DNA from: a virus
Lineage: Duplodnaviria; Heunggongvirae; Uroviricota; Caudoviricetes
Length of the DNA stretch: 18,146 nucleotides
Strand: one strand, 5' to 3'
Virus record (IMG/VR): IMGVR_UViG_2534682222_000018
Location: 1 to 18,146 of that record
In this document: positions 2,198 through 7,794 of the stretch, one piece after another
Layout: each line of letters begins with the position of its first letter
Numbering within the stretch: position 1 is the stretch's first letter
Position numbers and translations under genes: made by a program
The notes under the pieces: generated by a model
The model's input: only the letters and a program-made list of their open reading frames with translations
Database searches by the model: none
What the model was told of the DNA's origin: nothing

Positions 2198-2364
2198 GCA
2201 GATTTTCTCCTCGCCGCGAGACGCAGCCATTTCTGATCCACCAGGCGGGCGGTGTAGTCTTTCAGGGTCGGGATATCGGACGGCTTAACCGCGGGCTTAG
2301 GCTTGCGGCGCGCCGGAACGCGAAAGATTTCGTTTGTGATGACGCGGGAAAGTGGAGTTGACAT
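2194..2364 (-). CDS. ninE: NinE-like small basic protein
   Basis: 56-aa ORF below the track size cutoff, translated by hand: [65 protein letters not shown]. The RKPKP and W.R...RRK motifs resemble recalled lambda NinE. Coupled to both neighbours. Confidence 0.45.
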
Positions 2365-2819
2365 CAGGCCTCCTGCTTATCGCGCAGCACCTGAAATTCG
2401 CTGCTTTGAGGGATTGTGAGCACCAGGCCAAACTGAGCGCACCAGCCTTCCACCTGGCACATGAAATGGTGCATGTCGCCAGTGTCCAGATCGGACGTGT
2501 GGCGGAGTTCTAATTCAATCGTCTTAATTCCGGTGACGAAATCGGTGTACTCAACCTCTTCATAACCCAGATAAGTTTTTTTGAGGTTTCGCTTTACCCA
2601 TGCAGGCGTTGCGTCAGTGCGCCCAGACTTGATCAGGTAGTCGCTTATTTCCTTGTACCAAACGTGGCTCAGACTATTTTGTGAAAGGCTTCTCTTCTCG
2701 CGCCAGTCTTTGAGTTGGAGCCGGAAGCACTCACCGTTTTCGAGAAGTGGCTTCAGATGCTGAGTGATAGCACCAAGATTTCCACGGTGTAGCTTGATGC
2801 CGTCTTTGGGGATAATCAT
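2364..2819 (-). CDS. ninB: NinB (Orf-family recombination mediator)
   Basis: Start taken at the internal ATG 2819 with RBS AAGGAGG; the longer track ORF runs to 2867. Contains RSLSQNS, similar to the recalled lambda NinB RSLDQNR region. Stop overlaps the NinE-like start (TGATG). Confidence 0.65.
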   Translation of the reverse strand: MIIPKDGIKLHRGNLGAITQHLKPLLENGECFRLQLKDWREKRSLSQNSLSHVWYKEISDYLIKSGRTDATPAWVKRNLKKTYLGYEEVEYTDFVTGIKTIELELRHTSDLDTGDMHHFMCQVEGWCAQFGLVLTIPQSSEFQVLRDKQEA

Positions 2820-3003
2820 ACGGCCTCCTTGACGGAAACCGCAGAATGCAGAAAATCGCAGGTGCATTTCTGCATCTGTGACAAGGTGAGGAGTTCAGAT
2901 TGTTGTCGCATTTAAGTCCCCTTAAATGCGAAGAAGTCATCGAAGTTGTTCAGGCTCCGATGACATGATTATAACATCACTTTTGAAAAATGATTATCAA
3001 GAA

Positions 3004-3672
3004 TCACTCTAACTTCGGCGCTGCTTCAATCATCCTGCGATAGACATTGTAAGTTCCGAATTGTTCATCACCAGCCTCAAGCATTTCATGGGTTGGATCT
3101 TCTGGCACCATCACCCAACCATCAGGAATCACCGGAGAGTTGCCACCCTGAACAGTAGGCATATCCGGACCTTTGCGAATCGCCCTGGCAAGATCGATTG
3201 GGTCATCGTACAACCAGTCACCTGTTTGCGGATGATTGGCTTCTGCCAATTGTGCAGCCCACTCCAGGCCGTCTTTGTGTCCTTGCAGATAGTCCAGCGG
3301 TAACTCATCACTATTACTTACAGGTTCGGCCTGAAGCATGGCGGCGCGATAGGCGTTCCAGCCGACAGCTTTTCCGTGTTCAAACGCGCTGTCAAAGTCA
3401 TCATCCATTTCCATCGCAGCGGGCACAGATACCGGCGCTGGCGGGGCGGTGTAAAGCGGCGTTACTTCTCGCAGCGGGTCGGCATAAGCATTGCCACTAT
3501 CGAAGCTGACGTTGTTTTTTGCCCCGCCTCCTGACAGCAACCACGCCACCGGCTCCGCTTCGAGCGATGCCAGCGCAATCCGTGCCAGTTCCATTTGTTC
3601 ACCACGGGTAAGCCCGTTTTCAAGCGGATTTTTAATGAACAATTCAATACGTTCTTTGGTAATAGTGCTCAT
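3004..3672 (-). CDS. Hypothetical protein (accessory insert in the nin region)
   Basis: 222-aa ORF; ATG 3672 with RBS GGTGAGGA, 3 nt after the upstream stop. Pro/Ala-rich linker (TAPPAPVSVPAA) and acidic C-terminal half. No family recognised. Confidence 0.6.
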   Translation of the reverse strand: MSTITKERIELFIKNPLENGLTRGEQMELARIALASLEAEPVAWLLSGGGAKNNVSFDSGNAYADPLREVTPLYTAPPAPVSVPAAMEMDDDFDSAFEHGKAVGWNAYRAAMLQAEPVSNSDELPLDYLQGHKDGLEWAAQLAEANHPQTGDWLYDDPIDLARAIRKGPDMPTVQGGNSPVIPDGWVMVPEDPTHEMLEAGDEQFGTYNVYRRMIEAAPKLE

Positions 3673-3675
3673 GGG

Positions 3676-4107
3676 TTAGTCCTCACCTTTCTGTTGCACT
3701 ACCGGAACCGATAAATCGACGCACCAGGAGATAACGCCGAATTGATCATCGTTCTGCGCTTCACCCCAAACGTAATATTTTGATCCTGGCCGACCCATTG
3801 CCGGGTCAAATACTTCTATGCCGCGTTCTGCCGTTAACGACATCAGAATCTGATGCAGGCCGCCTTTGATGTTCAGTGACGGAACGGTCAGGAAGTAAAT
3901 AAACCCGTAAAGCAATTCGGCCTTGCGCTGGCTTCCGTAAAAATACGGGATTTTGTAATAATCCAGCGCGTCGTCGAGCCAGTCTGTTTTGTCGTGGAAT
4001 TTCTGATGCCAGCGTTCCACTACCTCATCGACAGATTGACCGGCAACCATTGCAACGCAGGTAGCCATGCAGGTGTTAAATGTTGGCTGCATTTGATGTT
4101 GAAGCAT
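3676..4107 (-). CDS. Hypothetical protein, possible C39-like papain-fold cysteine peptidase
   Basis: 143 aa from ATG 4107 (the track starts at GTG 4110). Candidate Cys-His-Asp order: QMQPTFNTCMATCVAMVAG, GGLHQILM, VFDPAMG. Start overlaps the upstream stop (TGATG). Confidence 0.4.
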   Translation of the reverse strand: MLQHQMQPTFNTCMATCVAMVAGQSVDEVVERWHQKFHDKTDWLDDALDYYKIPYFYGSQRKAELLYGFIYFLTVPSLNIKGGLHQILMSLTAERGIEVFDPAMGRPGSKYYVWGEAQNDDQFGVISWCVDLSVPVVQQKGED

Positions 4108-4655
4108 CACTCCCCCTTACCGATGCCAGCGGCGCGGTCTATGCGTTCGATTTCAGCCAGAATTAAATCCCCTGCTTTTACCAGGTTGCGACGGCGGGCA
4201 TTTGGCTTCCACCATGAAGCATCCCAAGGCCACCCCCACGGCTTGCCACCATTGCGGTTAACAGTTCCTGTTTCGTTTATGTAACAAACCGCCGCCATTG
4301 CCAGTTCCCCGTTGCAGTGTTCGTCATCATGCTCTGGCATCCACCCCTCAACCGATTGTTGCCGCTGGCGCTCTGCTATCACATCCAGAATTGCAGGATT
4401 GAATGCACGCGCTTCCAGTTCTGCAATGCGCTTCTCTGCGGCTTCCAGCGATGCCAGCAGCGCCAGCACGGTGGCGGGGTTGGCTGCGGCGATAAATGCA
4501 GCATCACGCGCTTCGTTTTCACTGAATACCATGGCTATTTGCTCATGGTTCACGCCGTCAGTGGAGTAAATCTCATCGTCGAACTCAACAGCCCACCGGC
4601 CTTTCGTCGCCTTCTCCGCCGCTTCACGCAGAGCCTGGTAATTAATCTCGCTCAC
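4107..4655 (-). CDS. Ead/Ea22-like protein with C-terminal DUF550 (dATP/dGTP pyrophosphohydrolase-like) domain
   Basis: N-terminus MSEINYQALREAAEKAT plus coiled-coil AEKRIAELEAR is the recalled Ead/Ea22 signature. C-terminus has WMPEHDDEH, WGWPWD and ILAEIERIDR. GTG start 4655 with RBS AAAGGAGG overlaps the upstream stop (GTGA). Confidence 0.55.
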   Translation of the reverse strand: MSEINYQALREAAEKATKGRWAVEFDDEIYSTDGVNHEQIAMVFSENEARDAAFIAAANPATVLALLASLEAAEKRIAELEARAFNPAILDVIAERQRQQSVEGWMPEHDDEHCNGELAMAAVCYINETGTVNRNGGKPWGWPWDASWWKPNARRRNLVKAGDLILAEIERIDRAAGIGKGE

Positions 4656-5359
4656 TGGTTGCCTCCTTTGCGAAGCTGGGCGGCGATATCTTCGAGAACG
4701 CCATCAGAGAATGAGCGGTCAAAATCGCCTTCCGGCGCATTAGCCATAAACTCAGTAGAGGTAAGAATCATCCTGGCAATATCCGCGGCGTTCTTTGCAG
4801 TATCATCAATAAAACCAGCTTCCCAGGCAGCCAGCATTCTGTTCGCCACAAAGTAAGCTCCCTCCTTGCGTGCTTCAGTCTTCACTTCAGCCAGGAAGGC
4901 GTCGGTTGCTGGGGTTTCAGGAATAGTGTCTGGAATAACTTCTGAGTAAATGCGATCCATTGCTTCGAGCCATCCATATTCACAGGCGTTATAACCGTCA
5001 GTCTGAAGACCGTTATCCTCAACACCACAGCCCATTCCGATGCTTTGATAATCAGGCTCGTTACTGCGGTCAATCACTGCTGATAGAGTGCCTTTCAGCC
5101 CCGCATTCTCCGCCGCCAGCTCCCTGCACTTGCTCTCGGCGTTAGCGAGCTGTACTGCCATGTCTGTGACTTCGGCTTCAAGTTTTTCAGCATATTCAAT
5201 CAGGAGATCGATTCTTTCCGGCGTTACGGTTTTAACGTATTTGCAAATCGATGACGCATAATTATCATCCTGGAGTGTGCCAGCCAGGCCATTACAAAAT
5301 TTGCGGTTCCCTTTTGTCGCCTTGATATCGGCGATGATTTTTTTAACATCTGGTTTCAT
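4652..5359 (-). CDS. Hypothetical coiled-coil protein (accessory)
   Basis: 235 aa from the internal ATG 5359 with RBS GGGAGGG; overlaps the ren stop (ATGA). The upstream part of the track ORF overlaps ren in another frame and is rejected. Central coiled coil (EKLEAEVTDMAVQLANAESKCRELAAENAGLK). Confidence 0.5.
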   Translation of the reverse strand: MKPDVKKIIADIKATKGNRKFCNGLAGTLQDDNYASSICKYVKTVTPERIDLLIEYAEKLEAEVTDMAVQLANAESKCRELAAENAGLKGTLSAVIDRSNEPDYQSIGMGCGVEDNGLQTDGYNACEYGWLEAMDRIYSEVIPDTIPETPATDAFLAEVKTEARKEGAYFVANRMLAAWEAGFIDDTAKNAADIARMILTSTEFMANAPEGDFDRSFSDGVLEDIAAQLRKGGNQ

Positions 5360-5655
5360 GCTGACACCCTCCCGTAAAACGCCAGTACACGCTGCATCGC
5401 CGGGCTGTTCCGGCACTCCTGAAATATTCCGTTGGTGCAGCTGCGTGCGGTACCGGCCTGCTCTTCCTGCGTGGCCAGGCGATAAGTCACCGTTCGCCAG
5501 ACCTTGCTCACCCGGACAATCTTGCGGGCCCGCTCCAGATCGATAGCGTTCTTCGTGATGCAGTTGATGGTCATGCCGCACTCTGTGGCCACATCCTTCG
5601 CGGTAAAGGTCCTGTGCGTTTCGAGATAACGCAGAATTGCCTGTTTGCCTTTCAT
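5356..5655 (-). CDS. ren: Ren-like protein
   Basis: 99 aa (MKGKQAILRYLETH...). ATG 5655 overlaps the P stop (ATGA), as ren follows P in lambda. Resembles the recalled lambda Ren pattern (VWRTV.YR.AT.EE, ECR.S.AM.RVL). Confidence 0.45.
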   Translation of the reverse strand: MKGKQAILRYLETHRTFTAKDVATECGMTINCITKNAIDLERARKIVRVSKVWRTVTYRLATQEEQAGTARSCTNGIFQECRNSPAMQRVLAFYGRVSA

Positions 5656-6431
5656 TGGATAAGCCCTCTCTCTTTCCCGCGCTGATACTCTTCCCAAAGC
5701 CATTGGGCCGGGGTTAGAGCTCCGAGAGTCGCTGCGTTTGGCATGCACCCGAAGCTTTTTCCTTCCGGGTGATAACCGGCCTGACGGCTCACGTGATTTG
5801 TCGGGATCACTTCATCAGAATTCTCGAGCGCCAGGACGGGGGATGGTATTTTTTCCCCACCAGCAACTTTCAGCGCCCATTCCTCAAGTTTTTTTGACGC
5901 GTATTTTTCAGTTTCAGCCTCGCTCAGCTGGCGCTGGTACATCGCTCTGCGCGTATCGGTCACAATCCAGTACATGACGTCATGAGACCACGGGAAAGCT
6001 TCTGCTCCGCCGGTATGCAGCCCTTTTTCGCGGCTATACCGATGGAACTCATTCATCACATCAGCCAGGCCAATGCCAAGTACCGTGCCGCTATCCTTGC
6101 ACCATTTGATGAATTGCCCCGGAGAAGGCCAGAAGGGTGATTCACTGGCGCGGGCATGCCGTACACCTGCGGAAAGTTGTTCGCGGGTGCGGATCCCATT
6201 CTCTGAAAACGCTGCGATCCACTGACGCTTTGCCGTTTTCTCGTCTGCGTCAGTTTTCAGGTTTGTCTGCGTAGACGCAGGGAAAATCTGCTTCAGCTGC
6301 CGAAATAGAGAATCAACAAGCCCCTCAGCCTCAGGGTTGATAACCTTCTGCTGGTCGGTACTTCCGTTCGCCATTCTGGAAAGTAGCGCACCATCACGGC
6401 CGTTAACGGCTTGCATAATCTGATTATTCAC
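5652..6431 (-). CDS. P: Replication protein P-like (DnaB helicase loader)
   Basis: RQWIAAFSENGIRTREQLSAGVRHARASESPFWPSPGQFIKWC matches recalled lambda P (RRQWVLAFRENGITTMEQVNAGMRVARRQNRPFLPSPGQFVAWC). Start taken at GTG 6431 (SD GGGAGGA, 6-nt spacer, GTGA overlap with the O stop). The track ATG at 6446 has no usable spacer. Confidence 0.75.
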   Translation of the reverse strand: MNNQIMQAVNGRDGALLSRMANGSTDQQKVINPEAEGLVDSLFRQLKQIFPASTQTNLKTDADEKTAKRQWIAAFSENGIRTREQLSAGVRHARASESPFWPSPGQFIKWCKDSGTVLGIGLADVMNEFHRYSREKGLHTGGAEAFPWSHDVMYWIVTDTRRAMYQRQLSEAETEKYASKKLEEWALKVAGGEKIPSPVLALENSDEVIPTNHVSRQAGYHPEGKSFGCMPNAATLGALTPAQWLWEEYQRGKERGLIQ

Positions 6432-7162
6432 AGGAAGTCCTCCCATCCCTCGCGGCTGTTCCAGTGAGGCGTTTCCTGCTCGGCACGACCACGCTTAGCC
6501 AGCGGGTTAACCCTGGCATTCCGGATCCAGACTCTGAAAGCCGAATTCCAGTCGATTAGCTGCGTGCCACGGGAAAGGTGATAGTCCCGGAAGTTCAGCA
6601 GCTCAGTTTCAATGCTCACCCCCTTCTCGGCAGCCATAGCAATGTGATCTGCCGACGGCTTAAACAGGGGCGGGAATGGAATCTCCCCGTTTGGTGAAAT
6701 CCCGATCCGCCGCTTAGCGGCTTCGCTCATAAAACCATCGCGCCCAGAGAGAGAGTTAGGTTCAGTGACTGGTTCAAAAGAGTGACTGGTTCTGGTGCCA
6801 TCTGGTGGCACAGGGGGTGTGCAATCAGATGGCATAGGGTGTGCTTCTTCGTGGCATACCCCTGTGCAATTTAATGGCATAGGGGTGGCATCTAATTTCA
6901 GGTAATACACATTTGACGTGTTACCTTTTCCGTTGTTGACGCCAACACGGTTCTCACGCCTGATAAGCCCCATTTCTTCAAGCGCATCAATATGGTTACG
7001 AACAGCCGTTCTGCTGCATTCGCATTGGTCGGCGATATGTTGATACGAAGGCCAGCATTCGCCTTTATCGTTGGCGTTATCGGCCAACTTAATCAGGACG
7101 AGCTTACGCAGTGAGTTTCCCACTTTGACCCCCATTGCTTTCGCCATAAGTGACATGCTCAC
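6428..7162 (-). CDS. O: Replication initiator, O-like (N-terminal winged-HTH, Pro-rich linker)
   Basis: 244-aa ORF directly upstream of and coupled to P. N-terminal HTH region (LKLVLIKLADNANDKGECWPSYQHIADQCECSRTAVRNHIDALEEMGLI). Iteron-like repeats lie inside the gene. Start is GTG 7162 (RBS GGAGG, 6-nt spacer) or ATG 7156. Confidence 0.6.
   Translation of the reverse strand: MSMSLMAKAMGVKVGNSLRKLVLIKLADNANDKGECWPSYQHIADQCECSRTAVRNHIDALEEMGLIRRENRVGVNNGKGNTSNVYYLKLDATPMPLNCTGVCHEEAHPMPSDCTPPVPPDGTRTSHSFEPVTEPNSLSGRDGFMSEAAKRRIGISPNGEIPFPPLFKPSADHIAMAAEKGVSIETELLNFRDYHLSRGTQLIDWNSAFRVWIRNARVNPLAKRGRAEQETPHWNSREGWEDFL
6764..6893. repeat. Iteron-like repeat cluster inside the O gene (putative ori)
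   Basis: 12-bp direct repeat AGTGACTGGTTC at 6764-6775 and 6781-6792. Four or more TGGCA(C/T)A(G/C)GGG-type units at 6807, 6831, 6853 and 6876 (period 22-24 bp), followed by an A/T-rich stretch. Confidence 0.5.
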
Positions 7163-7286: not shown

Positions 7287-7508
7287 TCATGCTTCAAAAT
7301 CTCCCTTCACTCCATCCCTGTTCGAAATCAGGATGGCCAGCAGCAGCGACATGTTCGGTACCAGGTTTTCCCGCCACCGGCTGACTGTGGATTTGTTGAT
7401 GCCAGCTACTTCGGCTATCCGGGCGGTACCCAGATCAGCGATTTGACGCTGCACCCAGCTCTCAATTCGTCGTGCCTCCGCTTTGTTGCGTGTCGTTAAG
7501 GTCTCCAT
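7287..7508 (-). CDS. cII: CII-like transcriptional activator
   Basis: 73 aa. RNKAEARRIESWVQRQIADLGTARIAEVAGINKSTVSRWRENLVPNMSLLLAILI aligns with recalled lambda CII. ATG 7508 with RBS GAGGAA. Located just downstream of cro. Confidence 0.7.
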   Translation of the reverse strand: METLTTRNKAEARRIESWVQRQIADLGTARIAEVAGINKSTVSRWRENLVPNMSLLLAILISNRDGVKGDFEA

Positions 7509-7548: not shown

Positions 7549-7794
7549 TCAGGCGGCATGTGAATCTTGTTTAATTCGGTCAGGGTTAGCTGCTTGACGG
7601 AGCCATTCAGCCGTAAACTGCCCATTTGATGCGTCAGCCAAAAGCTGCGAATAGTTGGTTTTCTCTGTGTACTCAGTACGAGGCAGCGCCGCGTTCTTCA
7701 CCCACTTGTGAATAGCAACGTTCGATAGGCCACACAGGCGAGCAGCAGCGGTTTGACCGCCTACAGCTTCGATTGCAAATTGCATTGGGTTCAT
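7549..7794 (-). CDS. cro: Cro-like HTH regulator (Cro/YdaS type)
   Basis: 81 aa with HTH GQTAAARLCGLSNVAIHKW. Transcribed divergently from the cI-like gene across an operator-rich 84-bp spacer. Confidence 0.6.
   Translation of the reverse strand: MNPMQFAIEAVGGQTAAARLCGLSNVAIHKWVKNAALPRTEYTEKTNYSQLLADASNGQFTAEWLRQAANPDRIKQDSHAA

Follow-up and report, generated by a model that had tools for sequence, protein, structure and literature searches.

The whole 18,146-nucleotide (nt) stretch, hereafter the window, is IMG/VR virus record IMGVR_UViG_2534682222_000018, a Rac/lambda-like prophage of Escherichia coli 541-15 that carries four genes, A to D, between a ren-like gene and a ninB/ybcN-type gene. 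We consider it likely that these are non-essential accessory genes of the ea type, forming a mosaic block that occupies the variable ren–ninB slot of the pR operon and is colinear with the ea region of phage P22. A first-pass annotation had described the four genes as an accessory cassette for host takeover or anti-phage activity; its observations were borne out in part, in all but a DUF550 domain, and its interpretation is partly supported.

The order A-B-C-D mirrors the order eaE–eaF–eaD–eaI–eaA of P22, and an ea-type block is accordingly the best reading of the insert. By similarity and position, A corresponds to eaE, B to eaD and D to eaA, with C standing in the place of eaI. Residues 93-232 of A are 62% identical to P22 EaE over 143 amino acids (aa; E 3e-49), the N-terminus of B is of the Ead type and 30% identical to that of P22 EaD (E 0.001), and residues 1-80 of D are 61% identical to P22 EaA (E 5e-26). 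The two regions also differ. The P22 genes lie between abc and xis in the early-left region, whereas the block of the window belongs to the rightward operon; it lacks both eaF and eaI; and, apart from a 16-residue motif shared by D and EaA, B and D bear no relation to EaD and EaA in their C-terminal parts.

Gene A is a chimaera, for its residues 1-86 recur unchanged at the start of a gene of strain EC09 (locus L001; annotated 'HNH endonuclease') whose remainder is different. At its other end, residues 149-232 are 90% identical to HK225_053. The protein matches phrog_26126 and phrog_14548, both of unknown function, has no match in Pfam, and forms a singleton cluster at 90% identity that is present on 4 contigs. 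The earlier description of A as a 235-aa coiled-coil protein was correct as to length; the coiled coil was not confirmed, the matches that bear on it being weak ones (a NudE-like coiled coil at E 0.064 and HAP1_N at E 0.058), and the helical stretch following the N-module is probably a coiled coil. We also considered whether the C-terminal 'LRKGG-NQ' of A could be a ubiquitin-like tail for C, and rejected the idea since the GG is not kept: HK225_053 and the EC09 gene end in KGVQS.

Residues 2-83 of B match PF13935 (Ead_Ea22) at 4.8e-20, with 73 bits against a cut-off of 27, so the Ead/Ea22-like half of the earlier assignment stands. The DUF550 domain (PF04447) to which this half was said to be fused did not survive scrutiny. 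There was no PF04447 match at E ≤ 10 in B and none in 26 relatives, and hhalign gave a probability of 0.2% when a profile of the B C-terminal domain was compared with a genuine PF04447 protein. The nucleotide-hydrolase-like activity read into B is not supported. Kinship of the B C-terminal domain with MazG-like all-alpha NTP pyrophosphatases, which are marked by a four-helix bundle and EExxE…ExxD metal-binding motifs, was also considered, and the domain is left unclassified. The genuine DUF550 protein used in this comparison (L011:4737-5246) is encoded by a Serratia prophage two genes downstream of a homologue of C; DUF550 genes therefore share the accessory pool, though B is not one of them.

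The C-terminal half of B is predicted to fold as a separate helical domain, here called the WPW module after its well-conserved pattern AERxRQ…EGW..EHDD…WPW..WWKP…LAEIERxDR. It has 489 relatives and stands behind many unrelated N-termini, introduced by the linker LEAAEKRIAELEARAF. The segment encoding this linker is common to the ead/Ea22-like genes of hundreds of E. coli genomes, where its flanks are unrelated: 322 E. coli records match, and most of them share only query positions ~733-775, the linker stretch, at 95-100% identity. From this distribution the segment looks like a preferred recombination joint for the exchange of C-terminal domains.

The Ea22 proteins of lambda and Stx phages (PF13935) are described as pro-lysogenic tetramers in which an N-segment is followed by a coiled coil and then by a C-terminal domain that is mosaic (PMC10834534, PMC7093339). 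B resembles them in passing the Pfam threshold, in having the same three-part build and in exchanging its C-terminal domain at a conserved linker. It differs in that its C-terminal domain is helical whereas that of lambda is mixed alpha-beta (PMC10834534), in having, like A, C and D, no significant match in PDB sequence searches, and in lying between ren and ninB rather than in the early-left exo–xis region. The Ea22 pattern extends to A and D: like B, each has an N-module that varies, a helical linker after it and, at the C-terminus, a domain that can be swapped. At the protein level, gene A contains two joints, AENxGLK and TPATDAFLAEV, that are similar to the LEAAEKRIAELEARAF joint of B. We suggest that the block was assembled by recombination at short conserved linkers of this kind.

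D is the homologue of phi80 gp52 (PHI80_52), with which it shares 74.5% identity over 220 aa, and gp52 likewise lies just upstream of a ninB-type gene. It matches phrog_60, phrog_12449 and others, all of unknown function, and has no match in Pfam. Its acidity, remarked upon earlier, is real (isoelectric point, pI, 4.37), though A, B and C are acidic too (pI 4.46–4.93). The motif 'LLSGGG' of D was examined as a double-glycine leader and set aside: it falls in a linker of the EaA type, a common one that P22 EaA also has, there without the GG. The same slot holds variable genes in phi80 (gp52) and HK225 (genes 53-59), between a P-like gene and ninB. Pieces of A, B and D recur in HK225, and ninB, ninE and the D–ninB spacer are 98% identical, in the case of the spacer up to position 2955 in both phi80 and HK225. 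In contrast to the window, the slot contains one gene in phi80 and seven in HK225, and C is found in neither. Within the spacer of the window, an 8-bp perfect inverted repeat, TGCAGAAA / TTTCTGCA, lies at 2847-2874 on the minus strand, and the equivalent spacer between gp52 and the ninB-like gene of phi80 carries an annotated repeat, 'IR4'. The lambda terminator tR2 lies at about this position, and the inverted repeat might be its equivalent.

Were A to D one co-functional cassette, a nucleotide-hydrolase-like domain in B and a peptidase in C would together serve host takeover or act against other phages or host defences. We regard this as quite improbable. In its favour, C has an intact active site and the genes are translationally coupled, just as first described: the junctions, read directly from the sequence, are ATGA for ren/A (the TGA of ren overlapping the ATG of A), GTGA for A/B, TGATG for B/C and a 3-nt gap for C/D. 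However, such coupling says little or nothing about co-function, because ATGA-type tight packing is general to lambdoid nin regions (PMC8022706), and A to D lie in just the accessory position of such regions, between the replication genes with ren and Q, packed in the same manner. The refutation of the DUF550 domain also speaks against the cassette. Furthermore, searches of the PADLOC-DB 2.0 defence models gave no match for B, C or D and two weak matches only for A (Csm2, E 0.002, in the coiled-coil part, and PDC-M54B, E 0.038).

At least 80% of window positions 2300-5800 was found in none of 5,426 complete E. coli genomes and in no sequenced phage. The best coverage of this interval was 72%, in a case where other genes stand in place of A and a DUF551-type relative in place of D. 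B and C occur together in five of the 5,426 genomes, and A has given way to other genes in both L001 and L003. Where the nucleotide sequence is 94-98% identical to that of other prophages, the matching segments break off within genes; the one in common with EC09 and 730V1 (3543/3650-4489) takes in residues 56-182 of B, the complete C and residues 1-43 of D. The genes are split up in related prophages, which is an outcome that the first-pass annotation had named as refuting its interpretation, and as judged by these alignments A to D are not a conserved cassette.

A narrower proposal is that C works with its neighbours, the C-terminal domain of B and/or the EaA-like D serving as its substrate, regulator or adaptor. 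We surveyed the neighbours of C in 80 IMG/VR loci with C homologues (a locus scan of genome contigs gave 4 loci only). Thirteen of these loci hold a C that is 98-99% identical, and among the 12 that are informative the B C-terminal domain lies directly upstream in 8 and an EaA/D-like gene directly downstream in all. EaA-like matches also follow C in some loci at 84-90% identity (L035, L036, L038, L053) and in one at 57% (L019), and in two Serratia prophages (L018 and L051) a WPW-domain protein is encoded 1.3 kb downstream of C. Against this, the adjacency of the B C-terminal domain is gone below 93% identity of C (0 of 12 loci at 78-93%, where B itself is missing from all 12), no adjacent B-type domain is found where C is ≤63% identical, the Serratia prophages being a partial exception, and the domain does not adjoin C in any of the virulent-phage homologues examined. 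A 98% identical 947-bp block points to recent co-inheritance, and the N-terminus of D beside a constant C ranges from 47% to 98% identity, which is mosaic behaviour rather than co-evolution. Beyond near-identical copies of C, we found no conserved partner of C in the loci surveyed, and such a smaller functional unit is in our view unlikely.

The contexts in which C is found fit a gene that moves between accessory positions. It lies in a ren–ninB or nin context, with P, cI-cro-cII, ninE, rusA or Q nearby, in L001, L003, L023, L027 and L030, and in a P22-type ea context, after erf/abc2, in L028. In Rac-like left arms (L046-L050), homologues 60-63% identical to C lie between recT and DUF4060. The window has a similar recE/recT arm, but nothing lies in its recT–DUF4060 gap (16437-16474) and its C is placed between ren and ninB; the C family thus uses alternative slots. 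In Enterobacter prophages C is found beside zf-DksA/DUF4222/int, and in Serratia it follows a DNA methylase. The same ea-type genes occur in two accessory slots, one at exo–xis and the other at ren–ninB. As a cassette the block is of little consequence; it exemplifies the shuffling of ea-type genes by lambdoid phages between these two slots, at joints formed by short conserved linkers.

No promoter or terminator signal above chance was found inside the block, nor any promoter-like site on its coding strand, which suggests that A to D are read through from pR as delayed-early genes and would be silent in the lysogen. Prophage accessory genes often confer defence, and A to D adjoin a Ren-like exclusion gene; they might accordingly be superinfection-exclusion or defence genes expressed in the lysogen and acting like ren or rexAB. 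We think this very improbable, given the lack of internal promoter-like sites on the coding strand, the location of the genes inside the repressed pR operon, the absence of a convincing PADLOC match and the fact that homologues of C are common in strictly virulent phages, which better fits a role in the lytic cycle.

Another view is that the prophage is defective and the block functionless filler DNA in the course of decay, its chimeric structures being recombination debris. The singleton status of A could be cited for it, as could the fate of D in one NCBI assembly: the open reading frame (ORF) of D is intact at L004 4436-5104 (= window 3004-3672), yet no gene is called in the otherwise identical GCA_050586945.1 contig. 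However, all four ORFs are intact, each start is preceded by a purine-rich Shine-Dalgarno sequence, and the predicted catalytic residues of C are invariant over ~860 clusters' worth of diversity. Moreover, C and the C-terminal domain of A are under strong purifying selection. For C and its Enterobacter homologue, nonsynonymous divergence (dN) is 0.11 with synonymous divergence (dS) saturated, and for the A domain and HK225 gene 53 dN/dS is 0.045. A to D are genuinely coding, and the chance that they are mere filler is in our estimation negligible.

If the block is a mosaic of ea-type genes, each product would act singly on a target of the host or of a competing phage. A, B and D may be independent oligomeric scaffolds that display variable binding domains to host targets, and C may be a cytoplasmic cysteine (iso)peptidase that cuts a peptide or isopeptide bond of a host or competitor protein during lytic growth. 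A to D may modulate the host or counter defences. Some points weigh against the interpretation as a whole: expression of A to D from pR is argued from position only, A or D could contain an enzymatic domain that went unrecognised, and the arrangement of B C-terminal domain, C and D-like gene in the loci with near-identical C leaves room for a functional sub-unit.

The earlier call of C as a C39-like peptidase was upheld. C is predicted to be an active, stand-alone C39-like cysteine peptidase (clan CA, papain fold) with its active site intact: Gln7, Cys13, His85 and Asp101 show no variation among 19 close relatives or among 55 diverse ones (25-59% identical), and the protein conforms to a papain-like alpha+beta fold. 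With the Gln at position −6 from the Cys and the His at −16 from the Asp, the spacing is that of ComA. In this spacing and in its size of ~140 aa, C resembles peptidase C39 (PF03412), the bacteriocin-processing domain of the ComA, PCAT1 and HlyB-type ABC transporters. Unlike these, it is phage-borne and falls below the Pfam threshold: C itself gave no PF03412 match at E ≤ 10, 11 of the 55 relatives match it sub-threshold only (best E 0.001, 18.7 bits against a cut-off of 22), and 2 of the 55 match C58. PDB profile searches with C returned PfhB2 alone, at E 0.37-0.93. Nor is C built into an ABC exporter, as the N-terminal domains that cleave off double-glycine leaders are; it is a free-standing protein with no obvious signal peptide at its N-terminus. 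There is no transporter among the proteins scanned across the window or in the gene tables of the relatives that were fetched, and no double-glycine peptide gene near C. In its sequence features C behaves like a C39/clan-CA peptidase, though one that does not reach the Pfam threshold and is not tied to a transporter as C39 proper is.

The C family comprises 859 representative clusters (at 50% identity) among 1.84 billion representatives and is spread over temperate and virulent phages; none of the Pfam models reaches its threshold on the family. Homologues, all less than 60% identical to C, occur in 184 sequenced phages, including Vi01-like, Seurat/9g-like, VP5-like Vibrio and Pseudomonas phages; two phage records name them 'papain-like cysteine protease' and 'ABC-type bacteriocin transporter peptidase domain'. 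Literature searches on phage C39/papain-like anti-defence proteases returned nothing relevant, and no study of the C family was found. We tentatively raise the idea, which we ourselves hold to be doubtful, that the family consists of active stand-alone C39/Josephin-like cysteine (iso)peptidases used early by temperate and virulent phages against a specific host protein or conjugate. If true, it would be a general counter-defence or host-takeover protease of phages, for example one that disables a defence system or strips ubiquitin-like tags. The C family is the part worth following: C is conserved in E. coli prophages and as far afield as Vi01-like, Seurat-like, Vibrio and Pseudomonas phages, and finding its target would give a function to hundreds of phage 'hypothetical proteins'.

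Two apparent fusions in the C family were also considered. Members of 226-229 aa in the 90% cluster of C suggested an Ea22–peptidase fusion; their sequences are B-like and they are probably a clustering artefact. P0402, a 272-aa metagenomic member, has an N-extension that looks MazG-like by eye (…QEELGEV…EAADLLVV…), an assignment that we rejected as it has no support from Pfam, PDB or hhalign.

The anatomy of the locus is summarised in Table 1. All right-arm genes are on the minus strand, in the order cro, cII, O-like, P, Ren-like, A to D, ninB/ybcN, ninE, NinI-type phosphatase, YbcO-like, RusA and Q. The presence of four genes of the sizes first described between ren and ninB was confirmed, with intact ORFs and with flanks identified by phrog and NCBIfam matches, as was the statement that in lambda ninB comes directly after ren, the distance between the two being 73 nt. 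The ren-like gene is also called at 99 aa in the identical contig L004, and the ninB-type protein of the window is 100% identical to HK225 NinB. E. coli 541-15 records list all four proteins (EC54115_19853–19868). Annotated proteins of exact identity were found on no contigs other than those of the E. coli 541-15 type: A, B and C are each on 4 of these, and D is on 1.

Table 1. Features of the right arm in and around the A to D insert (window coordinates)
Feature	Position	Strand	Remarks
cro	7549-7794	-	
cII	7287-7508	-	
O-like initiator	6428-7162	-	
P	5652-6446	-	
ren-like gene	5356..5655	-	99 aa; upstream boundary; phrog_142 Ren-like exclusion protein, 4e-35
Gene A	4652..5359	-	235 aa; ATG start
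Parts of gene A			N-module, residues 1-86; helical stretch; EaE-like C-terminal domain, residues 93-232
Gene B	4107..4655	-	182 aa; GTG start
B N-terminal half	4404..4655	-	Residues 1-84; Ead/Ea22 N-segment and helical linker; PF13935
LEAAEKRIAELEARAF-encoding stretch	4408..4450	-	~40 nt; putative shared recombination joint of variable N-modules and C-terminal domains
B C-terminal domain	4110..4403	-	Residues 85-182; helical 'WPW' module, unclassified
Gene C	3676..4107	-	143 aa; ATG start
Predicted catalytic residues of C	4089-4087, 4071-4069, 3855-3853, 3807-3805	-	Gln7, Cys13, His85 and Asp101, respectively
Gene D	3004..3672	-	222 aa; ATG start
Parts of gene D	3004..3672	-	EaA-like N-terminus; variable middle and C-terminus
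D–ninB intergenic spacer	2820..3003	-	
ninB/ybcN-type gene	2364..2819	-	151 aa; downstream boundary; PRK09741, 2.8e-75; phrog_72 NinB/Orf, 1e-40

Elsewhere in the window, a 194-aa ORF and an overlapping 139-aa ORF of the YafO toxin family (8772-9766, plus strand) lie directly downstream of a cI-like repressor gene (7879-8655). The 139-aa ORF matches PF13957 (3e-16) and phrog_1651, and the 194-aa ORF has no match in Pfam or PHROG. Because the pair is in a rexAB-like position, it may be a toxin or defence module expressed in the lysogen. On the left arm, the plus-strand interval 11923-16436 encodes a RecE-like protein, unusually long at 1129 aa (N-terminus Exonuc_VIII, C-terminus PDDEXK/DUF3799), and after it a RecT of 372 aa; these genes mark the left arm as Rac-like, not lambda Red-like. 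The Rfam model of the Hfq-binding small RNA isrB matches at 11784-11881 on the minus strand, opposite in strand to the recE-like gene and immediately upstream of it, with 38.2 bits against a gathering score of 35.

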